A stretch of 64,000 nucleotides of DNA from Candidatus Marinacidobacterales bacterium. Its GTDB lineage: Bacteria; Acidobacteriota; Vicinamibacteria; Marinacidobacterales; SMYC01. The DNA is taken from the NCBI GenBank assembly GCA_965237955.1, contig OZ250169.1, positions 7,232,001 to 7,296,000 on the forward strand. Direction: 5' to 3'. The translations under genes and the position numbers were made by a program. Position 1 is the stretch's first letter, and each line of letters starts with the position of its first letter. This document shows positions 10,935 through 64,000 of this stretch, one piece after another. The notes under the pieces are model-generated. The model was not told the DNA's origin, made no database searches, and saw nothing but the letters and a program-made list of their open reading frames with translations.

Positions 10935-11549
10935 ATGGCAACGGCGGAGGGTTCCGACAGCATTACGGTGCAGATGGAGGATGCCAAGTTCGCCGCGCGA
11001 ATTCGGGCGGGCGAGCGTGAAGCCCTCCAAGCCGTAGTGCATGCCTACATGAGTCAGCTCCTGCGCGCCGCGCGGGGCGCGGGCTTGAGCCCCCATCGCG
11101 CCGAGGACGTGACCCAGGCCACGTTTGTGACTTTCATCGAGATCGCCCCCCGCTTCGAGGGAAGGTCCCATGTGCGCACTTTCTTGTTCGGCATCCTGTA
11201 CAAGAAGATTGCCGAGGCCCGCCGCGAACTCCAACGGAATCAACAATTTGACGCTATCGATGATGTCGTGGAACAACGGTTCAAGACCGACGGGAGCTGG
11301 CAGCGCCCACCGAGACCGATCGACCTCCAGCTCCACGATGCAGAAATTCGAGACGCGATCGACGGCTGTCTTGAGCACGTATCCACTCAGAAGAGAATGG
11401 CCTTTGTGCTTCGCGAAGTCGAAGGCCTCGCGACAGAAGAAATTTGTAAGATTCTGGAAGTGACGCGCACTAACCTAGGAGTGCTGCTATATCGTGTTCG
11501 CGACCACCTTCGGGAATGCCTGGAGGCAAAGGGTGTGAGAGAGCGTTAA
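10935..11549 (+). CDS. ECF RNA polymerase sigma factor
   Basis: AEDVTQATF, RFEGRSHVRTFLFGI (region 2). AFVLREVEGLATEEICKIL...VLLYR (region 4). Confidence 0.92.
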   Translation: MATAEGSDSITVQMEDAKFAARIRAGEREALQAVVHAYMSQLLRAARGAGLSPHRAEDVTQATFVTFIEIAPRFEGRSHVRTFLFGILYKKIAEARRELQRNQQFDAIDDVVEQRFKTDGSWQRPPRPIDLQLHDAEIRDAIDGCLEHVSTQKRMAFVLREVEGLATEEICKILEVTRTNLGVLLYRVRDHLRECLEAKGVRER

Positions 11550-29249: not shown

Positions 29250-30336
29250 TGCCTTGGTGCACAACTCCGATAGAGGCCGAGAGCTCGCTTGGCCCCGACT
29301 CCCATCATCCGATCATCTCGCTATCAGGCATCCCGAGCGCCGTCATCGTGTTGAGAATCTTGCACCCGATCCTTGCCTCGACTCTCTGTGCCGCCAACCC
29401 TCTCGCTCGCATCGCTGAGCCCACGATAGCCTTGTAGCGATGGAACGTTGTCTCGACTTTGATCCGTTTGCTGTAGCCCGATTCTGTGTGCCACTTTCGT
29501 TTGCCGAGCCGAGCTTGTGCTGCAATGTTGCGATTGCGCTGTCGGCTGCTCGCCGGCCCCGATGCGAGCTGGGCGCCCTTGCGCGGCGGTATCAGCACCC
29601 TCGGCGAGCAATGAGCGCTGTGATTCTCGATTGCCTCATAGACGCCGCCGGCGTCGTATGCGGTGTCAGCTCTGGCAGATGAGATGGGACTGTCGATCTG
29701 TCCGACAAGCGATGCAACCCGCGATGAATCGCGGGCTCTTTTGCTCGTCAGCTCGCCGGCGACGACTTCGCCACTCTGCTCGTCGACACACAGATGGAGC
29801 TTGCGATAGTCCCTGCTCTTTGGTGCTCTGCGCAGCTGGCCGGCGTGGACAGCGAGACCGCTGCTGTCGATCAAGATGTGCAACGGCGTCTTCTGCTTGT
29901 CTTGGTAGAAGGGGACCTTACCCAGCTTCGCCTTGCGCCTCGAGATCGTGGTGTGATCGGGCACATCATTGTCTAGCTTCATCAGAGCGAACAACGATCG
30001 CAGCAATCCCTCGCTCTGCCTAGATGACAGATGAAACACCATGCCCAGGGTGACAGCCGTCTCGATGGCGTGGTTCGAGTACTTGCGTTGACGGCCCGGT
30101 TTCCTCCTCCTCGGCCGGGGCGCGTCCCAGTTCACAAGCTTGCCGGCGGTGAGCGAGATCCAGACGGTCAGGCTCCCACGGTTGCGTAGACCCGCCTCAT
30201 ATTCACGCCAATTCCTCACGCGATAGGCCTTCTTCACATACTTCCGCTGAGTGCGTTTGAAAATGCTCATGGGGAACCTCGAATCCGTGAGTAAAGGACA
30301 ATTGTGGACCGAGATCGCGAGTTGTGCACCAAGGCA
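29250..30336 (-). mobile_element. IS5 family (IS903-like) copy 1, 1087 bp
   Basis: Perfect 18-bp IR TGCCTTGGTGCACAACTC. Near-identical to the copies at 32848 and 49604. No TSD. Confidence 0.93.
29305..30270 (-). CDS. IS5-family transposase
   Basis: YRVRNWREYEAGLRNRGSLTVW, IDSSG, RKLHL, ADTAYD, GYSKR..VET. Confidence 0.93.
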   Translation of the reverse strand: MSIFKRTQRKYVKKAYRVRNWREYEAGLRNRGSLTVWISLTAGKLVNWDAPRPRRRKPGRQRKYSNHAIETAVTLGMVFHLSSRQSEGLLRSLFALMKLDNDVPDHTTISRRKAKLGKVPFYQDKQKTPLHILIDSSGLAVHAGQLRRAPKSRDYRKLHLCVDEQSGEVVAGELTSKRARDSSRVASLVGQIDSPISSARADTAYDAGGVYEAIENHSAHCSPRVLIPPRKGAQLASGPASSRQRNRNIAAQARLGKRKWHTESGYSKRIKVETTFHRYKAIVGSAMRARGLAAQRVEARIGCKILNTMTALGMPDSEMIG

Positions 30337-38987: not shown

Positions 38988-40208
38988 TCAGTGGATCCTC
39001 TCGAGGGTGAGACCGCCACAGTTTAGGTAGACGAGACTGATGAGAGCTTCGGCAGAGTGGAGTCCAAAGCTGCGGTGGCTCAGCAGCCGGATTTTGTTGT
39101 TCATTCCTTCGAGTCGGCCGTTGCTGAGTCTCCACGTGACCCACGCGATGACGCCATCGAAGTGGCTGCGGATCATCTTCGCCGCGCGTTTGACGGGCTC
39201 TATCCTCGAGCTCATAGCGCGCCGCAGCCATCCTCGGAGAAACTTCTTGGCCCATGTCTCGGTTTTGTAGGTGTAGAGGTCCATGAAGTCGTCGCGCAGA
39301 AGCATGGCGCGGTAGAGGCGACGATTAGCTCGCACCTGCTCGCGGAGCACCCGTTTGTCTTTCGCGCTGCGGTTGTGTTTGGCCTTGAGAAGGGGAAACT
39401 TGGTGTTCTTGAGGTTGCGCCGGGCAGTCCCTTTGAGCTCGCGCACCAGCTCGCGCCGGGTCTTATCCACGGCCTCGTTCAGATGCTTGACGATGTGGAA
39501 GCGGTCAAAGATCACCCGTGCCTGAGGAGCCTTTTTGCCGACGACAGTTATGTACGGCTCCCACATGTCCATGCTGACCGCTTCGAGCTCCGCGGCTCTT
39601 TGTGGTCCGAGCTTGCGGAAAAACCGCAGCAGCGTCTTGGCCTTGCGCTCCTTTCCCGCCCAGACGACCCGGCCGCTGAGATGGTCTATTACCACTGTTA
39701 AGTACTTGTGGCGTTTGCGGTAGCTGATCTCGTCCATCCCAATCACCCGCAATCCATCGAGCTCGCGCCGCTCATCCCGCTGCTCGGCAACCACTCGCTG
39801 GATGATCCGTCGCACCGAACGCCACGTCACTCGGAAATAGTTCGCTACGGCGCTGACGTCCGTCCTCTGTGCCAGCCACGCTACCTCTTGTTCGAAGCTT
39901 TTGGTAAAGCGGCTTCCCTTGTCTGCCCAAGGCACCTTTTCTCTGACCACTCCACACCGCCGACATACCACTCGTCGGATCGAGTAGCGAAGATAGGTCC
40001 GGACTCCGAACAGGTCCAAGTGCCGCCAGTAGCGATTGTAGCGATCTTTGTTCTTGCGGACCTTTCGTCCGCAAATCCCGCACAGAGGCTTCCTCCTCCG
40101 TGGTACTACATCCACCACCACTCTGTCTTTGTCCGCCTGGAAGTGGAAACCTCGGACCCACAGGCCTTGCAATCCGATGAGCTTGTTGACTAACGTAGTA
40201 ACGCGCAT
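38988..40208 (-). CDS. ISL3-family transposase
   Basis: zf-ISL3 CGIC...CRRC, IGMDEISY, SMDMW, DRFHI, SNGRLEGMNNKI. Confidence 0.94.
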   Translation of the reverse strand: MRVTTLVNKLIGLQGLWVRGFHFQADKDRVVVDVVPRRRKPLCGICGRKVRKNKDRYNRYWRHLDLFGVRTYLRYSIRRVVCRRCGVVREKVPWADKGSRFTKSFEQEVAWLAQRTDVSAVANYFRVTWRSVRRIIQRVVAEQRDERRELDGLRVIGMDEISYRKRHKYLTVVIDHLSGRVVWAGKERKAKTLLRFFRKLGPQRAAELEAVSMDMWEPYITVVGKKAPQARVIFDRFHIVKHLNEAVDKTRRELVRELKGTARRNLKNTKFPLLKAKHNRSAKDKRVLREQVRANRRLYRAMLLRDDFMDLYTYKTETWAKKFLRGWLRRAMSSRIEPVKRAAKMIRSHFDGVIAWVTWRLSNGRLEGMNNKIRLLSHRSFGLHSAEALISLVYLNCGGLTLERIH

Positions 40209-40333
40209 CGCGGGAACGCTCTTTTCTCTTTCGGGAAAAAAGATTCTAGCGTTCTCGCCGATGCGCATCTACACATGGCTTACCCTCTCAACCCACGGGC
40301 CTCACCAAATGCCACTGCCCCTCAGCGGGAGAC

Positions 40334-40646
40334 GAGGCTGTGGGAAACGCCCCCACGGTTCTGGTCGTTCAGACCTTGCTCACGACTGAGTTCTCTTCGA
40401 AGCCTGGAAGGGCGTTTTCCATAGCCTCCACTAATCGAGCCCCCCCTTCCTTATTCCATATGAATTAATCTTTCTTGTATATATATCAGGAGGGGCCTGT
40501 GGGCGCTCGTGGGAAACGCGAAGCGTTTTCCAAGCGATTGTGGAAAACGCCGCTCCACGTTTGTACGTGCTCACAACCTTTCCCTAAACGCCTCTCTCGC
40601 CCGGAGTTTCCGGCGTTTTCCACAATCGCGGCAGCGTCCATAGGCC
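40334..40646 (+). repeat. Two long nested inverted-repeat structures in the ISL3 leader
   Basis: Stems 40334-40352/40410-40428, 40494-40507/40633-40646, 40534-40552/40611-40629 and 40510-40519/40523-40532. Confidence 0.85.
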
Positions 40647-40805
40647 ATGCCCTCCAACACAAATCAGATCCCCCGAAACGACAGGAGAACCACCTTTTTA
40701 TACATTCCAAGTTGTGGGGATTCTCCTACTGCCGCGCGCCTGGGTAGACACACTCGAGAAGAAAACTACTTGGCTTTCATAGGGATGCGGGGCTCGCCCC
40801 CCTAA

Positions 40806-42731
40806 GGGCCGGCGACAAAATAAGTTCCCGTTTTCAAGACGGTCGGATGGTGTAGTTCCATTTGGGTAGAGTCTGGTCCTTTGTAACGGAAAGCGCCTGC
40901 ATCCGCTCGTCAGTGATTTTGACGCCCTTCGGATAACGACGCCGGATAAGGTGTGCGCGTACTCGCAAACCGGAAGAGGTGGTGGTCGTGCGGATGTATT
41001 TGAGGATGGTTTCGTAGCTGTCGAGAGGCCTGCCCGCCCAGTTCTTGCTGATCTCGCTGAACAGACGGTGCTCCACTGGATTCCACTTGGATGAACCGGA
41101 CGGATAGTGGGCTATGGTGATAGCGATGTCGTGGCGATTGCAAATCCGCGTTTGAAGCCCGTGCTTCCAACCCCGACACCGATAGCCATTGCTGCCCCCG
41201 GCGTCTGCCAATATCGCGAGGTCACGGGCTGCAGGATAGCGTCGCCGTCCTTCCGTTCGCCACCACTTCTCGATGGCATTCACGGCGAAGTCCGGGGTGT
41301 TGTACGAGGTACCAATGAACACTGTCCCGCGGTTCGCGAGCAGATCGTAGACGCCGTAGGGGATTGCGATGCCGTTCGATTCGGAACGGAAGTCATGGTC
41401 TTTGACGAGAGTCGGCTCGCGGTTCCAGGCCTGCCCGCCGTTTTTGAATAATCCCACCAGCTCCCGTTTCTTCGTGTCTACGCTGATGATGGGATGACCA
41501 GCTGCGGCAAAACGCTCGCGCAGTTCGGCGATACACGCGAATTGGGTATCGCGATCTTCGGACGTGGCACCGCACAGCTTCTTGTGGTTCACCCGCAACG
41601 AGAAGCCGAGCTGTTTGAGCAGTCGACCGACGGTTTTGCTGCTGACGTTCACACTGAGGCTTCTTAGCTCGCAAGCAATCTTGTCGGTGGTCCGCCGCGT
41701 CCATTTCACTCCCGTCATCGGATCGCCCGCGGTGTCGTGCTTCATGAGTTCTTCGATCTTGGCGATGACTTCTGGCGTTTTTTTTGCACGGCGCGCCGTC
41801 CGCCACCCTTTCGCCGAACTCCGTCGAGCTCAACATCTCTCATTAGTAATTCCCTACGACCTCTGGCTACCGTGCTCGGATCCATCCCGAGCAGTTCGGC
41901 AATCTGTTGGTCGCCACCGTGACCGAGCTTCATGGCCTCGACCCCCGCGTAGAGACGGCGCTGCTTTTCATCGAGCAGGCTGTAGAAAAGAACGATCGCA
42001 GCCTTCAACTCCACGGGGAGCACGCGGACTCCCCCGACCCAGCCCAACGTGGAAGGTGACGCCTCATGTACCTGGCGGGCCGAGAGCTGTTGCTTGCGCG
42101 TGCTCACATCGGTGGCCAGATACAGATATCGGCCGAACACCTGCTCGCGCGCCAATCTTTTCTCTCGGACCAGTTTCAACAGAGGAGCCTTGACGTCAAC
42201 CTGCACCTCGTCCTCGAGCTCGTCGACGTAGTAGCCTGCCTCACAGGCCGCGACCAACGCTTTTACCGTCGCAAGCAACGTCCCGTACTTCGAGAACCAC
42301 ACTGAGCGCAACGACCAAAGACCTTTTCGATCGAACTGGGCGATCTCGTCCAACGTGTAGTAGCTACCACGGTGGGAGTAGCTTGTCCGATACGCCAACT
42401 CATTGAGCTTTCGGAAGACGGTCGAGTCCACATCGGTACCCAACACTGCCTTCAAATCATCGAGGGTAGCTATTTTGTGCTTCCTCAACAGGCGGTCGAG
42501 ATCTTCAGACTGATAGCTCGTAGGTCTCATAATAGGAGAAGTGCTCCTTGATAGGCGTAATCCTCCCTAAAATGAGGACCGTTTGTCAAACACGCGCTGG
42601 TTGCTGAAGATCTACAAATGTTCCGTTTCTAGGGAGCTTGCCAGGCTCTCGTGATGCCAGACGACATCGCGATCACGACCTGAAACAGGAAGAGTGTGCT
42701 CAAAACTAGACAGTTATTTTGTCGGCGGCCC
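40806..42731 (-). mobile_element. ISAzo13-family element, complete
   Basis: IRs GGGCCG(G/C)CGACAAAATAA. TAA duplicated at 40803-40805 and 42732-42734. Confidence 0.9.
40834..42530 (-). CDS. ISAzo13 transposase in two ORFs joined by a probable -1 frameshift at an A8 run
   Basis: ORF1 41742-42530 (LDEKQRRLYAG...TVARGRREL). ORF2 has TAGDPM..KWT, ISVDTKKRELVG, ADAGGSN, SKWNPVEHRLFS. T8 at 41778-41785. Confidence 0.85.
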
Positions 42732-43967: not shown

Positions 43968-44159
43968 TCAGTATCCGTGACCGGTGTTCCATAATCCCCG
44001 GATGCGGAAGCCGCTGGAACTAGAAAAAGAGGATCGCGTCGCGATCGCAGCAATCATGTGGTTGCCATAGAGGGTCGCAACGCCTTTGAAGTTGTCGTTG
44101 GCTCCGTTGGCGTAGGCCACGAACAGCGCACCGAGCAAGAGACCGGCGACAATCACCAT
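43968..44159 (-). pseudogene. PiT-family phosphate/anion transporter, first 32 or so codons
   Basis: ANGANDNFKGVATLYG signature, then unrelated sequence. Confidence 0.8.
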
Positions 44160-44173
44160 GGCTTTTCCAGCCG

Positions 44174-45340
44174 TCAGCAGCAGTTACCGTCGGGTCCGCA
44201 GTACGGCGCGTCGGTTGTCTCGGTGGCGTCGTAGTCGAGCCCCTTGGTCTCGCGCGCATGGCGCACCGCGTCCTTCCGGCAATCGAACGGTACCGCTTCT
44301 GAAAGAGGAATCTCCTCGTAAGGCTCTACGGCTTCGATGTCCGCTGCGTAGGGCTCGGATTTGTAAATGTTGAAAGTCTTGTCGCAGACCGCCATGCGTT
44401 GGCCTCGAAAAAGCGCGTGCCCGTCATCGTCGGTGACGCTCCGCCATGGCCCTTTGTAGATCACGGCTTGATGGCGCTCGAGGCACGGGCCTTCCTTCCC
44501 CTTGAAGGCTCGGACCGTGAGCGCGCGGAACTCGATGCCCTCGACGCTCTGCCAGGGTCTTTCGTCCCGCGCGAGGATCTCGACGCCGTAGAACCCGGCT
44601 TCCTCGAATGCCTTCAAGAACAGGTCTTCACGAAACGCACCGGAAATGCAGCCGCTCCAGAGATCGGGATCGGCTTGCAAGTGCTCGGGCACGTCTTCGT
44701 CGCTAACGATGTCCGAGATGACGACGCGTCCACCCCTCTTCAGGACACGATGCATCTCGCGGAAGAGCCCGGATTTCGACTGCGGGTCGACGAGGTTGAG
44801 CACGCAGTTACTCACCACGACGGCGATCGAGGCCGACGGGATCATCGGGTTCTCCCTCCGCTCCTTCTCTTTCCAGTGGCCCACGGCCTCGAGCTCCTCG
44901 ACGGTGCGTACAGGATGAGACTCGAGATGGGCCTCGAGCCGTTCTTGATCGAGAGCGAGGTCTTGAATCTTGCCTTTGCGGAGCTCGACGTTGTGATAGC
45001 CGAGCGCGTCCCCGATGCTCTGCCGGTAGTTGCGCGCCAGCGCGAGCATGTCATCGTTTATTTCGACGCCGATGACGCGGCCTTCCGGCCCCACCACCTG
45101 AGACGCGATATAACAAATCTTGCCGCCACCGCTTCCGAGGTCCAGAACCGTTTCTCCCGGATGCAGGTGCTTCGAAGGGTCCCCGCAGCCGTAGTCCCGC
45201 TCGAGGATCTCTTCGGGAATCACCGACAGGTATCGCGGGTCGTAGTCCACGGGACAGCAGAGCTCTCGCTCTCGCGCCGTTGCCGCCTGCGAGTAGCGCG
45301 ACTTCACGGCTCGTTCGGGGTTTATCTCGGTTGTCGCCAT
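44174..45340 (-). CDS. arsM: Arsenite S-adenosylmethionine methyltransferase-like protein
   Basis: LCCPV, YGCGDP, VLDLGSGGG, SNCVLNL, WSGCISGA and terminal CC. Start overlaps the upstream stop (TGATG). Confidence 0.82.
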   Translation of the reverse strand: MATTEINPERAVKSRYSQAATARERELCCPVDYDPRYLSVIPEEILERDYGCGDPSKHLHPGETVLDLGSGGGKICYIASQVVGPEGRVIGVEINDDMLALARNYRQSIGDALGYHNVELRKGKIQDLALDQERLEAHLESHPVRTVEELEAVGHWKEKERRENPMIPSASIAVVVSNCVLNLVDPQSKSGLFREMHRVLKRGGRVVISDIVSDEDVPEHLQADPDLWSGCISGAFREDLFLKAFEEAGFYGVEILARDERPWQSVEGIEFRALTVRAFKGKEGPCLERHQAVIYKGPWRSVTDDDGHALFRGQRMAVCDKTFNIYKSEPYAADIEAVEPYEEIPLSEAVPFDCRKDAVRHARETKGLDYDATETTDAPYCGPDGNCC

Positions 45341-46134
45341 CAGAAGCTTCCTTTCTTTCGCTCTTTCGCCGGGAGAATCTCGAGGCAGGTGGTCCACCAT
45401 CCGTGCCGGATCGTGTCCATGAACTCCACCGGGAGACCCTCCTGCTTCATCTCGAGCGCCAGGCTCTCGTGGTCGTAGTCCACGGGGACGAACTCGGCGT
45501 CGAAGCCGTTGCGGGCGTCGAGAATCGTGTACCAGACGTTGGTCCGTCCATCGTTGGCGGGCCGCCCCACGACACCGACGTTGACGAAGTGCCGGTCGCC
45601 GGTAAGCTCGCGCTTCCAATGAAGACCGGTATGCGTGGCTAGCACCACGTCGGCGTGATGCGAGTCCACCATCTTCTCGAGAAAATGCGTCGGGGTCGTA
45701 GACTCCCAGAGGAACTCGTTCATCTTTCGAGGCGAACCGTGGCTCATGAGCACCCGGTAGCCGCCGAGCTCGATGCGGATCGACTCCGGGAGCGATCGCA
45801 TCCACGACTTCCATCGGTCCGAGGTTCGGTCGAAGGTGTAGTCGTAGGAGATCTTCGCGAAGAAGTTGTCGCGGGGGTCGGTGTACCCGCACTGGCAGTC
45901 GTTGAGTCCGCGCCCGATGGAGTTGTCGTAGTTCCCCTGCATCACCCGTACGCCCGCTTCGAGCAACAAAGGAAACGTCTTGTCGGGGTGCGGCCCGAAG
46001 GCGCCGAGATCCCCGAGACAGAATATGGCGTCGACGTCGCGCCGGCGGGCGTCGGCAATGGCGGCCTCGAGGGCGATATGGTTGCTGTAGACGCCGCCGA
46101 GAGCGGCGATTCTCTCGAAGCGCTCAGGCCGCAT
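45340..46134 (-). CDS. Atypical metallophosphoesterase-family protein
   Basis: CLGDLG, GNYD, HGSP, THTG motifs. Motif I is GGVYSN rather than DxH. CQCGY insert. Confidence 0.8.
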   Translation of the reverse strand: MRPERFERIAALGGVYSNHIALEAAIADARRRDVDAIFCLGDLGAFGPHPDKTFPLLLEAGVRVMQGNYDNSIGRGLNDCQCGYTDPRDNFFAKISYDYTFDRTSDRWKSWMRSLPESIRIELGGYRVLMSHGSPRKMNEFLWESTTPTHFLEKMVDSHHADVVLATHTGLHWKRELTGDRHFVNVGVVGRPANDGRTNVWYTILDARNGFDAEFVPVDYDHESLALEMKQEGLPVEFMDTIRHGWWTTCLEILPAKERKKGSF

Positions 46135-47014
46135 CGCCGCCTCCCGCGCTCACATTGCTGCAAATGGCGCCGCCTACATAGCAGGTGTAGCAGGCTCCAT
46201 GCGCGAGCGGATAGGAGCCGAGCGACTCGGACAGGGTCTTTCCCATGCGGGCTTCCGGCGAGTCGATGAGGATGGGGCAGACGTAGACGCCCTTGTCGGT
46301 CACGATCCGCGAGTGGGTGCAGATGAGCTGAGAGACGTCGAAGTCCTCGAGCATCTCCACGGTCACCTTCTCCGACGGGTGATAGCCGCGATTGCGTTCG
46401 ACTTCCGCGCCGATCCGCAAGGTCGGAATGATCTTCACTCGGGGGCGCTCGTATCCTGCATCTCGCAGCACGCTCACGAAACGCGCGAAGACGTCGTCGT
46501 TGCGATCGTCGTCCCAGGTTTGCGCCACGGTGATGATCGGGAGGAAGCCGTGCTGCAGAAGAAGCCGCACACCGGCCATCGCGCGCACGAACGTCCCGTC
46601 CCCGCGAATGGGATCGTTCGTCTCGCTCGAGTAGCCGTCGATACTCACCCGAAACTCCAGGCTGTAGGGCGAAAGCACCTCGGCCCGCTCCAGCCGGGCG
46701 GCGGCCTCCGGTTTCAACAACGTCCCGTTCGTGAGCACGGTCGCCGGACCGAGCTCCAGGGTGCGCTCGAGAATCTCGACCATGTCCGGGTGTATGAAGG
46801 GCTCTCCCCCCGTGTAGTAGTACTCCTTGACGCCGAGCTCCCGAGACTCTTCGAGTGCGAGGAGCACGGCCTCACGGGAGAGGAGCTCGAACGTGTGGTT
46901 CGTCGGACCACACGAGATGAAGCAGTGGTGGCACGTCAGATTGCACAGCGTTCCCGAGATCTGGAACCAGAGATCGTCGAGGGCGCGAAGCTCGACCTGG
47001 GCACTCGCGCTCAC
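46124..47014 (-). CDS. Radical SAM protein with C-terminal Cys cluster
   Basis: CNLTCHHC, TGGEP, LTNG, VSIDG. C...C...CYTC....C tail. GTG overlaps the upstream stop (GTGA). Confidence 0.9.
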   Translation of the reverse strand: MSASAQVELRALDDLWFQISGTLCNLTCHHCFISCGPTNHTFELLSREAVLLALEESRELGVKEYYYTGGEPFIHPDMVEILERTLELGPATVLTNGTLLKPEAAARLERAEVLSPYSLEFRVSIDGYSSETNDPIRGDGTFVRAMAGVRLLLQHGFLPIITVAQTWDDDRNDDVFARFVSVLRDAGYERPRVKIIPTLRIGAEVERNRGYHPSEKVTVEMLEDFDVSQLICTHSRIVTDKGVYVCPILIDSPEARMGKTLSESLGSYPLAHGACYTCYVGGAICSNVSAGGGDAA

Positions 47015-48222
47015 GAGGCTCGCTCCTTCCGCCCCTCGGCGGCCAGCAGTCCGAACACTTCTTCGATCTGCTGGAGCCCGATGCGGATCAGGAAGTTCGA
47101 GCCTTTGCCGTAGCTCTTGGCCCCGAGAATGAAGAAATTCGGTTCCGGATTTCTGAGAACCTCGGCACCTTTGGACGTCTGCGCCAGGCAGTCGACCGGG
47201 CTTTCGCCGAGAAGAGCTGCGGCAAGTTTCATCGGAGCCAGCGAGGCGTAGCACTCGTGGACTTGGAGCTCTCGATAGAGGCTTCGGTCCGGATGGTACC
47301 CGACGTGGGCAAGGATCCGGTCCACGGTCACGAGCTTGGTTACCCGCGACGAGCGAAGCTCGACTTCGAACGCGGAGCTCTCACGCCGTACCGACTCGAC
47401 GGTGTGCTCTGGATAGAAGTGGACCCGGGCGTCGCCTCCCGCCGCGAGCTCACCTGCGAGCTCGGAGAGCCTCTTGCGCTCGGGAAGCGGATCGTCGGCG
47501 ATGACGGCGGGCGGCTTCTGTCTTCGCGCGACCCAGTGGACCGTCGTTTCGGGAAGGGCCCTCAAACCGTCGAGCGCCGTGCTCGCCGAGTGACCGTCGC
47601 CGACGAGGAGAACACGCTTTGCCTCGTATCTCGCGCGATCCGTCCCGGGGACGTCTTCGAGCTCGTAGGCAATGTGCTCCTCGAGCGCGCGCTCTCCGAG
47701 AGCCGGTACGTTCCCGTTTCCCATCCAATTGTGGTTTCCATACGTCCCCGAACAGTCGAAAAGGACGTCTGCCTCCACGAGCTCTTCGTCGCCGGCCTCG
47801 CTTTCGACGAGAAGCCGGAACGGATACCGCTCCCGCGGACCGCCGATGAGGTCGCCCTTCCCGATGCCGTCGCGGCCGACCGAGACCACGCGCGTGTTCT
47901 GGTGGATGCATCCCGACAGAGGGGCTGTGCGCGACAGAGGCTCGAGATAGCGCTCGAGGTGCTCCTCCCCGGTGAGATACTCCCCGGCCTCGGGAAGCTT
48001 GAAACCTTCGGCTTGGAGAAGGCGCGCACCCCGCCCCGAGTGATCGAGCTCGAAGGAAGAGAAGAGCCGCACGTGTCCCCAGCGCCGCAGGTTCCCGCCG
48101 ACGGCTCCACGCTCATAGACGCGAACGTCGTATCCGAGCTCGCGCCCGGCGAGCGCGGCCTCGATTCCGATCGGGCCAGCGCCGATGATGGCTAGTCTGT
48201 GCAAGTCTATGGGCCTTTCCAC
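47011..48222 (-). CDS. FAD-dependent oxidoreductase/monooxygenase of the type seen in ars clusters
   Basis: GAGPIG, DCSGTYG, VGDGHSA, HECYAS, EPNFFILGAKSYG. GGGAG SD before GTG 48222. Confidence 0.82.
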   Translation of the reverse strand: MERPIDLHRLAIIGAGPIGIEAALAGRELGYDVRVYERGAVGGNLRRWGHVRLFSSFELDHSGRGARLLQAEGFKLPEAGEYLTGEEHLERYLEPLSRTAPLSGCIHQNTRVVSVGRDGIGKGDLIGGPRERYPFRLLVESEAGDEELVEADVLFDCSGTYGNHNWMGNGNVPALGERALEEHIAYELEDVPGTDRARYEAKRVLLVGDGHSASTALDGLRALPETTVHWVARRQKPPAVIADDPLPERKRLSELAGELAAGGDARVHFYPEHTVESVRRESSAFEVELRSSRVTKLVTVDRILAHVGYHPDRSLYRELQVHECYASLAPMKLAAALLGESPVDCLAQTSKGAEVLRNPEPNFFILGAKSYGKGSNFLIRIGLQQIEEVFGLLAAEGRKERAS

Positions 48223-48266
48223 GGATACACTCCCGGTCCGCCTTTCGCGGATCTCGAACAGAAGGA

Positions 48267-49034
48267 TTAGAGCGTCGTGCAGGAAGGCAGCGGCGGAGCG
48301 CGCAACCGGTGGGCGGCGGCGGGTGAGAGGCGCTTGAGAGAGTGATGAGCCTCTTCGATGGTCCAAAGTTCCGGTACGGAAAGTCGTCGAATCCGAGAGA
48401 CGAGCCTCTTCAGAGCTACTCGGGCCCGCGGTCCATGGCTCGAGATGCGGTTCAAAAAGCGCACGAGCTCCTGAGCGCTATCGATGTCTTCGAGCTTCCG
48501 AAGTTGCGCCACCCCGAAGCCGCTTTCCTGAAGCCGCTCCACGGTCCGTTGCGCAACCTCGGCCGAGCCCCAGGGCATCGCTTCGAAGGCCGCGATGCAC
48601 GGCTCCGTCAGGCCGATAAGGTTGTAGCCTCCGTCGGTCGCCGGACCGACGACGGCCTTCCGTTCTCCTCGTGAGAGCTCGTCGAGAGCGGTTTTCACGT
48701 AATCCTGAGAGATCTCCGGCGCATCGTTCCCGATGACGACGACCCGCCGGTAGCCGCGCGCGAACGCCTCCTCGACCGCAAGCCTGAGCGATTCTCCGAA
48801 GTCTCTCCCTCGTTGACGGAGCCACTGAGCTCCCGGCGGGAGATCGACCGGTGCCTCGCTGGCGACGAGTAGATCGGCGCCGCTCAGACCCGTGCACACC
48901 GTCTGAACGTGCTCGATCAGGGTGGCAAAAAGAGCCGTGGCACGCTGCGACCCGTGGAGCCCGAGGGGTTTTCTAACCGCTTCCGCCTCCGGCGTCAGCG
49001 TGAAGAGGACGACCGCCGAGCTCGAGCGCCGCAT
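48267..49034 (-). CDS. DUF2064 / TIGR04282-like (CofC-like) transferase
   Basis: QRGRDFGESL, VVIGNDAP, VVGPATDGGYNLIGL, MPW, LEDIDS. Confidence 0.85.
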   Translation of the reverse strand: MRRSSSAVVLFTLTPEAEAVRKPLGLHGSQRATALFATLIEHVQTVCTGLSGADLLVASEAPVDLPPGAQWLRQRGRDFGESLRLAVEEAFARGYRRVVVIGNDAPEISQDYVKTALDELSRGERKAVVGPATDGGYNLIGLTEPCIAAFEAMPWGSAEVAQRTVERLQESGFGVAQLRKLEDIDSAQELVRFLNRISSHGPRARVALKRLVSRIRRLSVPELWTIEEAHHSLKRLSPAAAHRLRAPPLPSCTTL

Positions 49035-49138
49035 GACGCTACTCTACCAGACCACACGGCCGGGGCCTATGAATCCTTTCACAGGATCTGCTCGCACCTC
49101 CTCGTCATGCACCTATACGTCTGACGGCACATCTATCA

Positions 49139-49603
49139 GGCTACGCCGTCTTCTCAGCGATGGAAGAGCTCGAGCCTGATTTTCTCGTCGCGAACGGCGA
49201 CATGATCTACGCGGACAGCGAGTGCGCCGCGGAGCGCGCCGAAGGTGGCCGGAACATCCCCGGCGATTTCCCCAAGATCGACGATCCGAGCGTCGACTGG
49301 ACCAACGCGTCAGCCGTGAGAGAGATTTACCTCGCGCATTGGCGGTACAACCGCGCCGACCCCCACTTCCAGAGTCTCCTATCGAAAGCGTCGATGTACT
49401 CCCAGTGGGAAGACCGATGTCGATGGCGACGGCGATCGGCTGTTGTTCCACGAGCTCATAAGCGGCCCGCTGAGCGCGTTCAAGTCCGCGCCGCGGGGTC
49501 CCGACCCTACTTTCCAGCCACGCATCCTCTATGCCGAAGGCGAGCTCTTCAACTTCTCCTTCGTGCGCATCGAGCGTCGTGACGGCGTTTCCCACCTCCT
49601 CGC
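49139..49603 (+). pseudogene. PhoD-type alkaline phosphatase remnant, internally deleted and truncated by IS5
   Basis: PDFLVANGDMIYAD...YSQWED, then jumps to HELISGPL...NFSFVRI. Confidence 0.7.
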
Positions 49604-50690
49604 TGCCTTGGTGCACAACTCGCGATCTCGGTCCACAATTGTCCTTTACTCACGGATTCGAGGTTCCCCATGAGCATTTTCAAACGCACTCAGCGGAAGT
49701 ATGTGAAGAAGGCCTATCGCGTGAGGAATTGGCGTGAATATGAGGCGGGTCTACGCAACCGTGGGAGCCTGACCGTCTGGATCTCGCTCACCGCCGGCAA
49801 GCTTGTGAACTGGGACGCGCCCCGGCCGAGGAGGAGGAAACCGGGCCGTCAACGCAAGTACTCGAACCACGCCATCGAGACGGCTGTCACCCTGGGCATG
49901 GTGTTTCATCTGTCATCTAGGCAGAGCGAGGGATTGCTGCGATCGTTGTTCGCTCTGATGAAGCTAGACAATGATGTGCCCGATCACACCACGATCTCGA
50001 GGCGCAAGGCGAAGCTGGGTAAGGTCCCCTTCTACCAAGACAAGCAGAAGACGCCGTTGCACATCTTGATCGACAGCAGCGGTCTCGCTGTCCACGCCGG
50101 CCAGCTGCGCAGAGCACCAAAGAGCAGGGACTATCGCAAGCTCCATCTGTGTGTCGACGAGCAGAGTGGCGAAGTCGTCGCCGGCGAGCTGACGAGCAAA
50201 AGAGCCCGCGATTCATCGCGGGTTGCATCGCTTGTCGGACAGATCGACAGTCCCATCTCATCGGCCAGAGCTGACACCGCATACGACGCCGGCGGCGTCT
50301 ATGAGGCAATCGAGAATCACAGCGCTCATTGCTCGCCGAGGGTGCTGATACCGCCGCGCAAGGGCGCCCAGCTCGCATCGGGGCCGGCGAGCAGCCGACA
50401 GCGCAATCGCAACATTGCAGCACAAGCTCGGCTCGGCAAACGAAAGTGGCACACAGAATCGGGCTACAGCAAACGGAGCAAAGTCGAGACAACGTTCCAT
50501 CGCTACAAGGCTATCGTGGGCTCAGCGATGCGAGCGAGAGGGTTGGCGGCACAGAGAGTCGAGGCAAGGATCGGGTGCAAGATTCTGAACACCATGACGG
50601 CGCTCGGGATGCCTGATAGCGAGATGATCGGATGATGGGAGTCGGGGCCAAGCGAGCTCTCGGCCTCTATCGGAGTTGTGCACCAAGGCA
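49604..50690 (+). mobile_element. IS5 family copy 3, 1087 bp
   Basis: Same 18-bp IRs, inverted relative to copies 1 and 2. No TSD. Confidence 0.93.
49670..50635 (+). CDS. IS5-family transposase
   Basis: 321 aa, same translation as copy 2. Confidence 0.93.
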   Translation: MSIFKRTQRKYVKKAYRVRNWREYEAGLRNRGSLTVWISLTAGKLVNWDAPRPRRRKPGRQRKYSNHAIETAVTLGMVFHLSSRQSEGLLRSLFALMKLDNDVPDHTTISRRKAKLGKVPFYQDKQKTPLHILIDSSGLAVHAGQLRRAPKSRDYRKLHLCVDEQSGEVVAGELTSKRARDSSRVASLVGQIDSPISSARADTAYDAGGVYEAIENHSAHCSPRVLIPPRKGAQLASGPASSRQRNRNIAAQARLGKRKWHTESGYSKRSKVETTFHRYKAIVGSAMRARGLAAQRVEARIGCKILNTMTALGMPDSEMIG

Positions 50691-51405: not shown

Positions 51406-52594
51406 CTAGTCCCATGGAACAGAAAAAGCTAGACAACACTGGCACTTCTGTGATCTGCTAAATGCATGAAACACAAGGGCCGGCGAAAAGCCGAATTGAA
51501 GCTGTCGTCTCAAGAAAGCGAAGCGCTGACGCGACTGGCGCGACGCAGCCGTAGTTCGCCGCACCAAGCCTTCCGAGCGAAGATCGTGCTGGATTGCGCG
51601 GCGGGTCTGACGAATATGGAAGTTGCTAGGAAGATGCACACCATGAGGAGCACGGTGGGCAAGTGGCGAAGACGCTTTGTAGAACAACGAATGGAAGGGT
51701 TGTACGACGAACCTCGGCCGGGAGCGGCTCGCAAAATCGGCGATGACCAGATCGAGGAAGTCGTGACCAAGACGCTGGCGACGACTCCAAAGGGGAGAAC
51801 CCATTGGAGTACGCGCTCGATGGCCAAGCATCTTGGGCTGAGTCATTCGACGATTGGACGTATTTGGCGAACGTTCGGGCTTCAACCGCACCGCTCGGAA
51901 TCGTTTCGTCTCTCGCAAGACCCACAACTGGTCGAAAAAGTACGCGACGTTGTTGGCCTGTATATGAACCCACCGGATAACGCGGTCGTCCTGTGCGTCG
52001 ACGAGAAATCGCAGATTCAAGCGCTCGAGCGTGCTCAACCTGTCCTGCCCATGAGCTTGGGCCAGCCCGAGCGACAAACCCACGACTACATTCGGCATGG
52101 AACGACTGACCTGTTTGCCGCACTCGACGCCGCAACAGGTGAAGTCTTCGGAAAGTGCTACGCGCGACATCGAGCGCTAGAGTTCAAGAAGTTCCTCGCT
52201 GAGATCGAAGCAGCCGTTCCCAGCGAGTTGGACATCCACGTCGTGCTCGACAATCTCGCCACGCACAAGACACCGGCGATCAAACGCTGGCTTTCCAAGC
52301 GACCTCGGTTCCACTTTCACTTCACACCGACACACGCCTCTTGGCTCAACTTCGCTGAGCGCTTCTTTGGCTTGCTCACCGAACACGCCTTGCGACGAGG
52401 CTCGCACACGAGCGTGCCTCAGCTCCGCGTTGCGATACAAGACTATCTCGATGCTCACAACGAGAACCCAAAGCCGTTCAAGTGGACGAAATCCGCCGAC
52501 CAAATCCTCGAAACCATCGCTCGGTTCGCCCAGCGAACGCTCGATACACATGGCAAATCGAATTTGGACAGTAATTAAAGATCCAGGGGACTAG
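51406..52594 (+). mobile_element. IS630-family element (coordinates include both CTAG)
   Basis: CTAGTCCCATGGA...TCCAGGGGACTAG, with the CTAG/TA target typical of IS630. Confidence 0.93.
51466..52578 (+). CDS. IS630-family transposase
   Basis: [47 protein letters not shown]. Confidence 0.95.
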
Positions 52595-52815
52595 CGAGCC
52601 ACGCTGGCAGGTTGCCGAATTCCGCCAATAGTCTGACGATGGTGACCACGGCGGTGATGATCGCCGGGACGGTGATGAGTTTCTTGATATCGATTCCGTT
52701 CGTGTCGGTCATTTGCCCCTCCTGCTCTCGCTTAAGTACACCAAGGGAGCCGTGAAAGCAACTTCGTTGGGTCTCCGTATTACTAACACCCATGTTTTCC
52801 TGGAAAAAAACTCGC

Positions 52816-52849
52816 CGCAGAGGCGCAGAGGACGCAGAGATTCGCAGAG
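52816..52849 (+). repeat. Four CGCAGAG units at 8-10 bp spacing
   Basis: Units at 52816, 52824, 52833 and 52843. Confidence 0.7.
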
Positions 52850-53061
52850 AGTATTTGTTGGAGGAAGCTACGCGCTTGAGTGGTGAGAGAACCTTTTCCG
52901 CTGCCGTGAACCGGGCCCTCGACCACTACGTTCGGCGGGCAAAAGCTGGCCGAATTCTGGAGTTGGCTGGAAGAGGACTGTGGGAGGGAAACCTCTCGGA
53001 AATGAGGGGCGATCGCAGCGCTCGCTCGAACAAACACAAGGCCGGTCGTGGTACTCGTTGA
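52850..53061 (+). pseudogene. vapB: VapB-type antitoxin lacking its usual N-terminus
   Basis: LLEEATRLSGERTFSAAVNRAL...ILELAG..LWEGNLSEMR overlaps the vapC start. The upstream part is repeat-derived. Confidence 0.65.
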
Positions 53062-53437
53062 CACCTCTGTCTGGATTGAGATCTTCAAGAAGCCGCCCGG
53101 GCTCGATTTGACGGCATTGGTGGACATCGACGAGGTGGCAGTCTGTCTACCCGTGATTCAGGAGGTCGTTCAGGGTTTCCGCGATGAGCGCGCGTTCGAC
53201 GTTGCGCGGGAAGCCATGCTCTCCTTTCCGGTAGTGGAGTCCCCTCTTGAAGAGTCGGTTTTCATGGAAGGCGCCTCGCTCTATCGGAGCGCCCGGCGCC
53301 GCGGATTTACTGTGCGCTCGAGCGTCGATTGCCTGATCGCGACGTGCGCGATCCGAAACGACTTAGAAGTGTTGCACCGTGACCGAGACTTCACCACTCT
53401 GGCTGAAGTGTCGCCGCTAAAGCTGCGTTCGCTGTGA
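53048..53437 (+). CDS. vapC: PIN-domain toxin
   Basis: VLVDTSVWI, VIQEV, RSSVDCLIA, HRDRDF. Confidence 0.9.
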   Translation: MVLVDTSVWIEIFKKPPGLDLTALVDIDEVAVCLPVIQEVVQGFRDERAFDVAREAMLSFPVVESPLEESVFMEGASLYRSARRRGFTVRSSVDCLIATCAIRNDLEVLHRDRDFTTLAEVSPLKLRSL

Positions 53438-53463: not shown

Positions 53464-54156
53464 CTAGACGCCGGCTTCGCGTAACGCTTTCTTTGCAGTG
53501 CGGGTGATCAGGATGGTCACCGCGAGCGTGGCGAGAAGGCCTACGACCTGGAGCACGATCTTCAGGGTCTCCGCGCTCTCGGCGCCCGAGGCGGCTTCGA
53601 GGCCGCTTCGTCCCAAGGTTCCGAAATACACGTAGAGGAACGTTCCCGGGATCATGCCGATCCACGTCGCCAGCGTGTAGTGCCAGAAGGTGACGCTGGT
53701 CAGCCCGTACGCGTAGTTCTGGAAATTGAACGGAAAGATCGGCGATAGCCGGGTGAGGAAAACGATCTTCCAGCCCTGTTTCGCGACGGCCTTGTCGATC
53801 ACGTTGAACGACGGCTTTTCCTGAATCCAGCCTTCGACGCGCTTTCGTGCTACGAACCGCGACACGAGGAATCCGAGCGCGGCCCCGAGCGTGGCGCCAT
53901 GCAAGACGGTGACGAATCCAGGAAGCAACCCGAACACGGCTCCGCCCGCGAGCGTCAGGAGCGAGCCCGGAATCATCAGAACCGTGGCGACAGCGTAGAC
54001 GAGCGCGAACAGCACCATCCCCAAGACGCCGAGCTCGCTGACCCAGGCACTGAAGACCTTGAGCCAATCGGCGACGGGTAGCATGCGCGCGGCGACGATG
54101 AAGCCGACAAGAACCACCGCGATCAGACCGTATTTGACGTAGTTCTTGGCCGCCAT
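53464..54156 (-). CDS. TVP38/TMEM64 (SNARE-associated, VTT) membrane protein
   Basis: PGSLLTLAGGAVFG, RLSPIFPFNFQNYAYGLT, GMIPGT. Coupled to the upstream gene (TGATG). Confidence 0.9.
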   Translation of the reverse strand: MAAKNYVKYGLIAVVLVGFIVAARMLPVADWLKVFSAWVSELGVLGMVLFALVYAVATVLMIPGSLLTLAGGAVFGLLPGFVTVLHGATLGAALGFLVSRFVARKRVEGWIQEKPSFNVIDKAVAKQGWKIVFLTRLSPIFPFNFQNYAYGLTSVTFWHYTLATWIGMIPGTFLYVYFGTLGRSGLEAASGAESAETLKIVLQVVGLLATLAVTILITRTAKKALREAGV

Positions 54157-55613
54157 CAGGAACGCCCCCGTTTGTAGAGCCATTTGAAGATGTTAGCGAC
54201 CGTCGCCGTCAGCTTCGTTTTCTGGAACGAGTCGGCGACGCGCTGCACCGAAGACGACAGATTCGGATACGCGTGGATGGTTCCGGAGAGTTTGGAGAGA
54301 CCAATGCCGTGTTTGGCGGCGACGAGCACTTCGTGGATGACTTCGCCGGCGTGGACGCCGGTCACCGTCGCACCGAGAATCTTGTCTTTGCCGGCCTCGG
54401 TGAGAACTTTGATGAAGCCTGTAGTCTCGCTGTCGGTGATCGCGCGATCGAGATCGTTCCAGTCGAAGCGGAAGACGTCGTAGGCGACGTTTTGCTTCTT
54501 GGCCTCGTCCTCGGTCAGACCGCAGTGGGCGACTTCCGGATCGGTGTAGGTGACCCAGGGCATCCAAGTATAGTCCGCCTTGGTCTTGAACCACGGAATG
54601 AGAATGTTCCGAACGACGATCCGTGCCTGGTAGTCGGCGGAGTGCGTGAACTGATACGGGCCGGCGACATCGCCGCAGGCGAAAATGTGTGGCTGCGACG
54701 TCGTCAAGGTCTCATCGACTTTGACGCCCCCGCGGTCGAACTCGACGCCGGCTTCCTCGAGACCGAGGTTGTCGACGTTCGCTTTGCGGCCAGTTGCGAC
54801 CAACAGCGCCTCCGATTCCAGCTTCCTCTGCTCTCCGTCTTCATTCTCGACGGTCGCGACAACGAGCTCGTCCTTCTGTTCGAAGCTCGTCGCTTTTGTG
54901 CCGGTGAAGACCTCGATGCCTTCTTCCGCGAAGCGCTTGGTGATGAGCGCGCTCGCGTCGGCGTCGTCGCGCGGTAAAAGCCTCGGCAGAAGCTCGACGA
55001 GCTTCACCTGAACGCCGAGCCGCCTCATAACTTGAGCGAACTCGCAGCCGATGGGCCCGCCCCCGAGGATGATGATCGACTTCGGCGCCTTCGGCATGTC
55101 GTCGAAGATGGTCTCGTTCGTGAAGTAAGGAACCTTGTCGAGACAGGGGATGGGCAGAACGAGTGCTTTCGTCCCGGTCGCGATCACGAAATTCCGGGCT
55201 TTCAGCCGGGTACCGTCATCGATTTCGACTTCGTGCGGGGAGACGAACTTCGCGCGCCCTTGGAACACGTCGACGCCGAGGCCTTCGAAGCGTTCGACGG
55301 AGTCGTTGGGCTCGATCTTGGCCCGCCGCTCGCGCATGCGCGCGAACACGTCTTCAAATCGAAACGACGGTTCCATGTCGGAAAGACCCATCTTCTTCGC
55401 GTGGCGGATACGCTCGATGAGCTTCGCCGACGAGATGAGTGCTTTCGAAGGAACGCATCCGTAGTTCAAACAGTCGCCGCCCATTTTTCCGGCTTCGATC
55501 AAAGCCGCCCGCCCGCCCAGCCCGACCGTGCCGGCGGACGTGACCAGGCCCGCGGTGCCGGCGCCGATGACGACGACGTTGTAACGCCCGTTTCCCTTGA
55601 CTTCTTCGCTCAT
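54156..55613 (-). CDS. Pyridine nucleotide-disulfide oxidoreductase (MerA/Lpd-like, no C-terminal Cys pair)
   Basis: GAGTAG, GGDCLNYGCVPSK, GGGPIGCE, GDVAGPYQFTH, IHAYP. Confidence 0.88.
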   Translation of the reverse strand: MSEEVKGNGRYNVVVIGAGTAGLVTSAGTVGLGGRAALIEAGKMGGDCLNYGCVPSKALISSAKLIERIRHAKKMGLSDMEPSFRFEDVFARMRERRAKIEPNDSVERFEGLGVDVFQGRAKFVSPHEVEIDDGTRLKARNFVIATGTKALVLPIPCLDKVPYFTNETIFDDMPKAPKSIIILGGGPIGCEFAQVMRRLGVQVKLVELLPRLLPRDDADASALITKRFAEEGIEVFTGTKATSFEQKDELVVATVENEDGEQRKLESEALLVATGRKANVDNLGLEEAGVEFDRGGVKVDETLTTSQPHIFACGDVAGPYQFTHSADYQARIVVRNILIPWFKTKADYTWMPWVTYTDPEVAHCGLTEDEAKKQNVAYDVFRFDWNDLDRAITDSETTGFIKVLTEAGKDKILGATVTGVHAGEVIHEVLVAAKHGIGLSKLSGTIHAYPNLSSSVQRVADSFQKTKLTATVANIFKWLYKRGRS

Positions 55614-63205: not shown

Positions 63206-64000
63206 GGGCCGGCGACAAAATAAGTTCCCGTTTTCAAGACGGTCGGATGGTGTAGTTCCATTTGGGTAGAGTCTGGTCCTTTGTAACGGAAAGCGCCTGC
63301 ATCCGCTCGTCAGTGATTTTGACGCCCTTCGGATAACGACGCCGGATAAGGTGTGCGCGTACTCGCAAACCGGAAGAGGTGGTGGTCGTGCGGATGTATT
63401 TGAGGATGGTTTCGTAGCTGTCGAGAGGCCTGCCCGTCCAGTTCTTGCTGATCTCGCTGAACAGACGGTGCTCCACTGGATTCCACTTGGATGTACCGGA
63501 CGGATAGTGGGCTATGGTGATAGCGATGTCGTGGTGATTGCAAATCCGCGTTTGAAGCCCGTGCTTCCAACCCCGACACCGATAGCCATTGCTGCCCCCG
63601 GCGTCTGCCAATATCGCGAGGTCACGGGCTGCAGGATAGCGTCGCCGTCCTTCCGTTCGCCACCACTTCTCGATGGCATTCACGGCGAAGTCCGGGGTGT
63701 TGTACGAGGTACCAATGAACACTGTCCCGCGGTTCGCGAGCAGATCGTAGACGCCGTAGGGGATTGCGATGCCGTTCGATTCGGAACGGAAGTCATGGTC
63801 TTTGACGAGAGTCGGCTCGCGGTTCCAGGCCTGCCCGCCGTTTTTGAATAATCCCACCAGCTCCCGTTTCTTCGTGTCTACGCTGATGATGGGATGACCA
63901 GCTGCGGCAAAACGCTCGCGCAGTTCGGCGATACACGCGAATTGGGTATCGCGATCTTCGGACGTGGCACCGCACAGCTTCTTGTGGTTCACCCGCAACG
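63206..64000 (-). mobile_element. ISAzo13 copy 2, partial (runs off the window)
   Basis: Near-identical to the element starting at 40806 and also preceded by TAA. Transposase stop at 63234. Confidence 0.92.

Follow-up and report, generated by a model that had tools for sequence, protein, structure and literature searches.

The 64,000 nt stretch analysed here (the window; positions 7,232,001-7,296,000 of contig OZ250169.1, assembly GCA_965237955.1) originates from a Candidatus Marinacidobacterales bacterium of the phylum Acidobacteriota, whose genome consists of one contig and is 98% complete. At 43968-49034, genes for an enzyme of the radical S-adenosylmethionine (SAM) class (rSAM) and a methyltransferase of the ArsM type lie in a group which makes up a real arsenic cassette, both conserved and mobile, with an unnamed rSAM family at its core. 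An earlier note on this DNA had described six co-oriented open reading frames (ORFs) at this location, all of which have been confirmed on the minus strand, five of them being intact. The genes, and the block that they form, are the following:

48267..49034, minus strand: DUF2064/TIGR04282-like transferase of the CofC fold; 255 residues, intact; Pfam DUF2064 at 92 bits
47011..48222, minus strand: ArsV-like flavoprotein, related to flavoenzymes of ars operons; 403 residues; Pyr_redox_3; C324 and C345 invariant
46124..47014, minus strand: rSAM of an unnamed, probably ArsS-related family; 296 residues; C24/C28/C31; auxiliary C232, C246, C275, C278 and C285
45340..46134, minus strand: metallophosphoesterase-fold protein, likely an As(V) reductase; 264 residues; Metallophos Pfam matches; CxC at C80/C82, and C250
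44174..45340, minus strand: long-form ArsM-type methyltransferase; 388 residues; C28/29, C52, C179 and C231
43968..44159, minus strand: PiT (PHO4) transporter gene, remnant only; ORF of 63 residues, ~32 codons homologous
44156..49110, no strand assigned: five-gene block, 97% identical to related genomes at the DNA level; recent transfer as a unit is likely

The middle four genes overlap exactly as had been described, with 4 nt shared by the flavoprotein and rSAM genes (GTGA), 11 nt by the rSAM and phosphoesterase-fold genes and 1 nt by the phosphoesterase-fold and methyltransferase genes (TGATG). Gaps of 44 nt and 14 nt separate the DUF2064 gene from the flavoprotein gene, which starts with GTG and has GGGAG upstream, and the methyltransferase gene from the PiT stub. 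Pfam and NCBIfam give concordant family labels for the cassette genes. The DUF2064 protein matches the full TIGR04282 model at 125.7 bits (cut-off of 134). The PiT stub has no Pfam match; complete PiT proteins can be aligned, through their N-terminus, with only its initial ~32 residues, and the remainder is unrelated read-through, with full PiT genes matching the stub occurring in ArsS and related clusters.

The earlier note had also reported the absence of TIGR04283, ArsR, ArsC and Acr3. None of them has been found among the ORFs of this stretch, and Acr3 (TIGR00832) was not found anywhere in the 98% complete genome, but a TIGR04283 gene scoring 242.5 bits, above cut-off, lies in the same genome ~390 kb away (G000:C1:6888088-6888738). 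A second, short ArsM-like methyltransferase gene and a second TIGR04282 gene (183 bits, above cut-off), neither of which is linked to the cassette, occur at G000:C1:2255762-2256448 and 5765555-5766148. A promoter scan of the locus returned 0 sites, and 2 terminator-like sites were detected where 4.2 were expected. In a comparison with 4 of the 15 listed RNA runs, short contigs from three libraries, which cannot prove transcription, match parts of the five genes; none match the neighbouring EAL gene, with no silent control in the comparison.

Families of the cassette proteins

The methyltransferase had been described as ArsM-like, and the hallmarks of ArsM are all present. Its cysteines at 28/29, 52, 179 and 231 reproduce the spacing of the As-binding Cys 30, 54, 181 and 233 of Burkholderia gladioli ArsM (BgArsM), as given in the available portion of PMC8552651. 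Among 67 homologues, each of these four positions is retained in 66-67, a class I SAM-binding motif is present and all five PDB matches are arsenic methyltransferases. No NCBIfam cut-off has been reached, the best model being the arsinothricin ArsM (337 of 500 bits), followed by scores of 185 (cut-off of 263) and 128 (cut-off of 400); an ArsM copy beside a true ArsS scores alike (334 of 500). From these features, the enzyme likely methylates As(III). The same subfamily adjoins ArsS, TIGR04283, DUF547 and PiT in a true ArsS cluster (L130), one genome (G026) carries two ArsM copies of which one adjoins ArsS, and in a quick tree of 67 rows the copies partnered with ArsS and with the unnamed family interleave. 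One ArsM type thus appears to serve either rSAM, and methylated As(III) is suggested as the substrate that the two have in common.

In the rSAM protein, the CxxxCxxC region and the C-x2-C tail quoted in the earlier note are both present, and the suggestion that the enzyme is not ArsS has held against a hidden Markov model (HMM). A plain ArsS orthologue is ruled out by a score of 53.5 bits against TIGR04167 (cut-off of 300), confined to residues 13-157, and no ArsS above cut-off has been found in the source genome. DUF3641 is the C-terminal domain associated with ArsS; at E 0.01, Pfam matches Radical_SAM only and DUF3641 is not matched. None of the 25 matches listed, of 50 NCBIfam matches, reaches its cut-off.

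A distant relationship with ArsS has been detected in profile-profile comparisons, where 44 diverse family members and 35 ArsS sequences align over 276 columns at 99.67% probability and ~21% identity. As in ArsS, an N-terminal CxxxCxxC is accompanied by five auxiliary cysteines, and C232, C246, C275, C278 and C285 stand in register with ArsS C243, C258, C295, C298 and C306, being conserved in 44, 44, 44, 44 and 40 of the 44 family members and in 35/35 ArsS. In an IQ-TREE tree of 49 rows (21 of 41 family members, 12 ArsS and 16 other rSAM), the family and ArsS are grouped at 87/87, and in the trees true members of the Rv1681 family group apart from the unnamed family. The predicted structure (predicted local distance difference test score of 91) resembles SPASM/Twitch enzymes generally: Foldseek against the PDB returned generic SPASM/Twitch folds only (best template modelling score of 0.67), with SkfB and BlsE as the nearest solved folds, and ESM Atlas returned generic radical SAM clusters only. 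The rSAM belongs to a separate, unnamed family, which is probably a full-length distant relative of ArsS, the support from trees being moderate.

The other characterised rSAM to be considered is ArsL, described in the accessible parts of PMC13598754 and PMC8552651 as a protein of 428 residues with CX3CX2C at 194-201 and a C-terminal RCCLKC. The cassette resembles the ArsL and ArsM pair of B. gladioli (arsQML) in its long-form ArsM, in the matching Cys spacing and in the placement of ArsM beside an rSAM gene, and the arsinothricin ArsM is the best model for its methyltransferase. An ArsL-like transfer of a 3-amino-3-carboxypropyl group, yielding an arsinothricin-like compound, is nevertheless hardly to be expected. 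With 296 residues, its motif at 24-31 and no RCCLKC tail, the cassette rSAM does not have the ArsL layout, no ArsQ is seen in the block and the ArsM subfamily also serves ArsS. An ArsL model was absent from the same 25 listed NCBIfam matches, no search aimed directly at that model having been made.

For the metallophosphoesterase-fold protein, the earlier note had proposed a phosphorylation or dephosphorylation step, which has not stood. A phosphatase role has been rejected for the loss of canonical metal ligands, with DxH replaced by GxY, GDxxD by GDLG, GNH by GNY and GHxH by THTG, H132 being kept. A CxC of the Car1 type is retained, where C80 and C82 align with C74 and C76 of metallophosphoesterases from ars operons and the protein is 34% identical to a Bacteroidota ars-operon member. 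Three relatives from plasmids were inspected; each is encoded in an ars operon and carries C74/C76 (75/77 in one). Among 49 homologues, C80 is conserved in 48, and C82, C250, Y16 and Y69 in 49. Car1 of Rufibacter tibetensis, known here by its description only, is a metallophosphoesterase-fold arsenate reductase in which the CxC is essential, according to the portion of PMC12124457 available. Given the ligand loss and the retained CxC, the cassette protein is likely arsenate reductase-like, acting on As(V) and not as a phosphatase. It differs from the ars-operon and Car1 type in its GxY and THTG motifs, in a C-terminal WWTTC extension and in being linked to an rSAM gene instead of arsR or acr3.

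The flavoprotein has 153 plasmid matches, 147 of which cover at least 80% of its length; the best 25 show 32-34% identity over ~90%, and the three inspected all lie in ars operons. One relative, 34% identical over 396 residues, belongs to a marR-arsN1 ars operon, a context described for arsV, so that the likeness is to an arsV-context flavoprotein and not to the characterised ArsV sequence. ArsO (NF040505, cut-off of 425 bits) is missing from the 17 matches obtained at E 0.01. C324 and C345 occur in 61/61 homologues, and one of them, an extra invariant cysteine (HxCY), is absent from the ars-operon relatives, from which the protein also differs in having no Cys-rich tail and in being fused to rSAM in some genomes. 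It is marginally probable that the flavoprotein oxidises the trivalent organoarsenic product or its excess; that it instead passes electrons from NADPH to the reductase or the Fe-S cluster stands at a little under an even chance.

Linkage, fusions and genome distribution

Co-occurrence of the homologues elsewhere, which the earlier proposal implied, has been borne out by a neighbourhood analysis, with linkage and genome profiles both showing it to be wide. The nearest related loci belong to Candidatus Marinacidobacterales, at 96-97% amino-acid identity. In the best 80 of 194 genome stretches with an rSAM relative, the partners include the flavoprotein in 70 and the phosphoesterase-fold protein in 53; DUF2064 accompanies 21 of them and the methyltransferase 6. 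Where the loci leave room, the immediate upstream neighbour is the flavoprotein gene in 62 of 73, and the phosphoesterase-fold gene follows directly downstream in 50 of 71. The grouping of these genes is beyond chance. In 50 genomes chosen for the rSAM, the window ArsM subfamily occurs in 42, usually unlinked, and ArsS above cut-off in 2.

Fused proteins have also been found. The best 150 matches of a search of 1.84 billion representatives include five long proteins that have been inspected, joining rSAM to ArsM (P0132, P0207), ArsM to rSAM (P0253) and flavoprotein to rSAM (P0122, P0124), and loci L162-L164 encode further rSAM-ArsM fusions.

The low frequency of an adjacent ArsM gene suits an explanation in which the substrate is not arsenic but antimony, selenium, a thiol or an organic compound, the ArsM gene being a passenger. 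The cut-offs of arsenic-related NCBIfam models are not attained by any of the five proteins, and the arsenic label of TIGR04282 is itself annotation. Each component of the cassette has some tie to arsenic, however, and independent links exist for four genes, in the ArsM cysteines, in the ars-operon context of the flavoprotein and phosphoesterase-fold relatives (3/3 each) and in the ArsM fusions, making this explanation very unlikely.

In 201 Planctomycetota genomes, taken as one even sample, the rSAM occurs in 24 and ArsS in 56; 43 carry the methyltransferase, 17 the flavoprotein and 17 the window-type phosphoesterase-fold gene (threshold of E<1e-100, three weaker matches being set aside). The latter two occupy the identical 17 genomes, all within the 24 of the rSAM, even when unlinked. 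Excluding the centre genome, the methyltransferase is found in 9 of 22 rSAM-only, 28 of 54 ArsS-only and 4 of 123 genomes with neither. Three of the 13 rSAM-only genomes without the window ArsM carry an ArsM fused to the rSAM, and five further such genomes examined all contain another ArsM-family match (for which the background rate was not measured). In the phylum of the window, represented by 199 other genomes (one unpublished genome left out and 14 weaker partial matches dropped), TIGR04282 accompanies 18 of 24 rSAM-only, 40 of 40 ArsS-only and 20 of 131 genomes with neither.

Mobility of the block and its divergent versions

The five intact genes between 44156 and 49110 share 97% DNA identity with a related genome (G002), and most of the block does likewise with two others (G001, G003). 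Nearby genes for RNase HII, a peptidase and uracil-DNA glycosylase are only 71-80% identical to those of the same three genomes, and this difference suggests that the five-gene block was recently transferred as a unit. In G001 the methyltransferase gene is split and DUF2064 is missing at the locus, and in G003 the methyltransferase gene is frameshifted. Several neighbouring features have been detected in the window:

49670-50635, 29308-30270, 38988-42530, 51466-52578 and 63234-63998: transposases
~49600-50690: element with dozens of copies, 98-99% identical, in five related genomes with a housekeeping identity of only 69-80%
49160-49582, plus strand: PhoD-like phosphatase gene fragment, between the cassette and the insertion sequence (IS) transposase
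52792-53437, plus strand: small antitoxin-like and PIN-domain genes, a VapBC-type pair
53464-55613, minus strand: genes for a VTT-domain protein and an FAD oxidoreductase of the PRK06370 type, such as typify ArsS clusters; the pair also occurs in the ArsS cluster L130
6725-7096, plus strand: DUF547 fragment
10935-11546, plus strand: extracytoplasmic function (ECF) sigma factor

The VTT and PRK06370 pair has been rejected as a part of the operon, lying 4.4 kb upstream with IS elements between; its counterparts (77-78% identity) are ~70 kb from the cassette in G001 and ~1 Mb in G003. DUF547 and an ECF sigma factor also flank ArsS in L130. In G001, the place directly upstream of the flavoprotein gene is taken by a near-identical sigma gene (L138:5407-5931).

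Divergent arrangements have also been observed. A divergent cassette at L352:3221-9326 has aquaporin and intact PiT genes downstream of ArsM, from which both As(III) and As(V) may be suspected of being taken up. A different radical SAM/SPASM protein of ~820 residues, fused to ArsM, occurs at L346:2054-4501 (minus strand), beside TIGR04282 and a PRK06370-like gene, and at L347:5472-7958 (minus strand), beside phosphate-ABC-like genes; these fusions possibly represent another undescribed arsenic radical SAM family. In two genomes, a Rv1679-Rv1680-Rv1681-type cluster (L345:4982-9570, L344), comprising an acyl-CoA dehydrogenase, a binding protein and an rSAM above cut-off, lies beside TIGR04282 and a glycosyltransferase, and either the arsenic link is wider or TIGR04282 is not arsenic-specific.

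Candidate pathway and competing explanations

The reading preferred here, held tentatively and just short of even confidence, is that the cassette provides a widespread, ArsS-like alternative route which adenosylates methylated As(III). ArsS converts dimethylated As(III) (DMAs(III)) and SAM to 5'-deoxy-5'-dimethylarsinoyl-adenosine (DDMAA), as stated in the available part of PMC13598754. In the proposed pathway, where each catalytic step is inferred and the gene content, linkage, fusions, conserved residues and family distances are observed, the Car1-like protein would first use its CxC to reduce As(V) or methyl-As(V), so that in air the substrate stays trivalent, and ArsM would yield monomethylated As(III) (MAs(III)) or DMAs(III). 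The methylated As(III) would then be attacked by a 5'-deoxyadenosyl radical delivered by the rSAM, with an As-C5' bond and a DDMAA-type product as the outcome. The ArsV-like flavoprotein would oxidise the trivalent organoarsenic, or supply electrons, and DUF2064 together with the unlinked TIGR04283 would carry the product on to arsenosugar-type compounds.

With the ArsM and ArsS systems the cassette shares the ArsM subfamily, a TIGR04282-type gene, a PiT neighbour (as in L130) and a TIGR04283 gene, here in trans. Since the rSAM appears to be a distant relative of ArsS, the ArsM subfamily is common to ArsS clusters and TIGR04283 is present in the genome, the product may be a known arsenosugar precursor. 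The differences from ArsS lie in the rSAM score and the unmatched DUF3641, in the position of TIGR04283 outside the locus and in the flavoprotein and Car1-like protein, which are lacking in ArsS-only Planctomycetota.

Several observations weigh against this reading. By HMM score, the rSAM core is nearer to the Rv1681 family (NF049973; 100.3 bits over residues 23-186, cut-off of 380) than to ArsS, and the C-terminal domains compared alone with ArsS give 19.6% probability and no significant HMM cross-matches. Support for the sister grouping of the family and ArsS is 0.24 in a FastTree tree of 69 rows (41 family members, 12 ArsS and 16 others), and in the IQ-TREE tree the ArsS branch is a long one. 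At window-type thresholds, the flavoprotein and phosphoesterase-fold genes occur in 0 of 54 ArsS-only Planctomycetota, a hint of chemistry differing from that of ArsS. TIGR04282 flanks other rSAM families too and is thus not a specific marker. In a distant branch of the family, 80 metagenome loci, only 38 of which were at least 6 kb long, show an ArsM-like neighbour in 2 and DUF2064 in 6. Lastly, in the phylum of the window the rSAM occurs in 28 genomes, ArsS in 44 and both in 4, close to the 6.2 expected (p 0.34).

A strict mutual exclusion of rSAM and ArsS, which held in the Planctomycetota (both in 1 of 23 rSAM genomes, 6.3 being expected, among 200 with the centre genome excluded), therefore failed in the window's own phylum, and the exclusion is a tendency at most. 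The p-values are all overstated, as kin are not independent, and the stronger ones conditioned on TIGR04282 or the methyltransferase have been discarded, since conditioning on a shared partner itself generates exclusion. Both enzymes are present in G022, G026, G155, G292, G329, G364 and G376; they can thus coexist and may not be redundant.

This coexistence in seven genomes, together with the two ArsM copies of G026, agrees with a different and undescribed organoarsenical, a possible product that the earlier note had put forward. The C-As bond would then involve another acceptor, methylation state or follow-up, with the flavoprotein and CxC protein as obligate and true enzymes of the pathway, and the dephosphorylation of the earlier proposal would give way to a reduction. 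The exact three-gene profile (17/17) absent from ArsS-only genomes, the ~21% profile identity to ArsS with a diverged C-terminal domain, and a flavoprotein with an extra invariant Cys but without the Cys-rich tail of its ars-operon relatives all speak for such a product. It is nonetheless rather unlikely, as the ArsM subfamily and the accessories (TIGR04282, PiT, DUF547 and TIGR04283 in trans) are those of ArsS clusters, and ArsM-fused rSAM occurs in three genomes (G099, G151, G249) where neither the flavoprotein nor the phosphoesterase-fold partner was found, indicating that the core reaction does not require them.

The breakdown or recycling of organoarsenicals, through radical C-As cleavage of arsenosugars or dimethylarsinic acid, is improbable; in it, the flavoprotein and reductase would deal with the arsenic set free. 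The distant branch is usually free-standing in the metagenome loci, as would suit it, and the source genome has no detected Acr3. A Roseomonas plasmid (L225:2992-9952) encodes TIGR04282, DUF547, a TrsS/Tes-like rSAM and a 31%-identical family member, along with a PhnD/E-type ATP-binding cassette (ABC) importer and a related CxC phosphoesterase-fold protein, and such an importer beside an rSAM is reminiscent of carbon-phosphorus (C-P) lyase loci. In the phylum of the window, the distant branch adjoins the same ArsM in four loci (L330, L331, L334, L336). This branch gives a catabolic reading its main foothold. ArsM fusions in both orders and translational coupling to ArsM fit synthesis, however, and the relative ArsS is a synthase.

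Reviews, in the portions available, name ArsS and ArsL as the only rSAM enzymes forming C-As bonds, and further arsenic literature was accessible in part (PMC12159101, PMC9807832, PMC13188914, PMC11237643, bioRxiv 10.1101/2021.08.12.456183). In the literature searched, most subscription journals being outside its reach, no description of the unnamed rSAM family was found. A doubtful prospect, but one worth naming, is that the family adds to ArsS and ArsL a third rSAM route by which C-As bonds are formed. In it, methylated arsenic would become an undescribed organoarsenical with the help of a flavoprotein that is obligate and a reductase repurposed from the phosphoesterase fold, the five genes still moving between genomes as a unit. 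In the window block the core genes stand together, intact and translationally coupled, whereas in Planctomycetota they are often scattered. Of the genomes sampled, 24 of the 201 from Planctomycetota and 28 of the 199 others from the window's own phylum contain the rSAM family (~1 in 8), mostly where ArsS is missing. If the ArsS-like chemistry preferred here is true, much of the arsenosugar capacity of bacteria escapes surveys that count arsS; if the product is another one, it would be a new and common arsenic metabolite.

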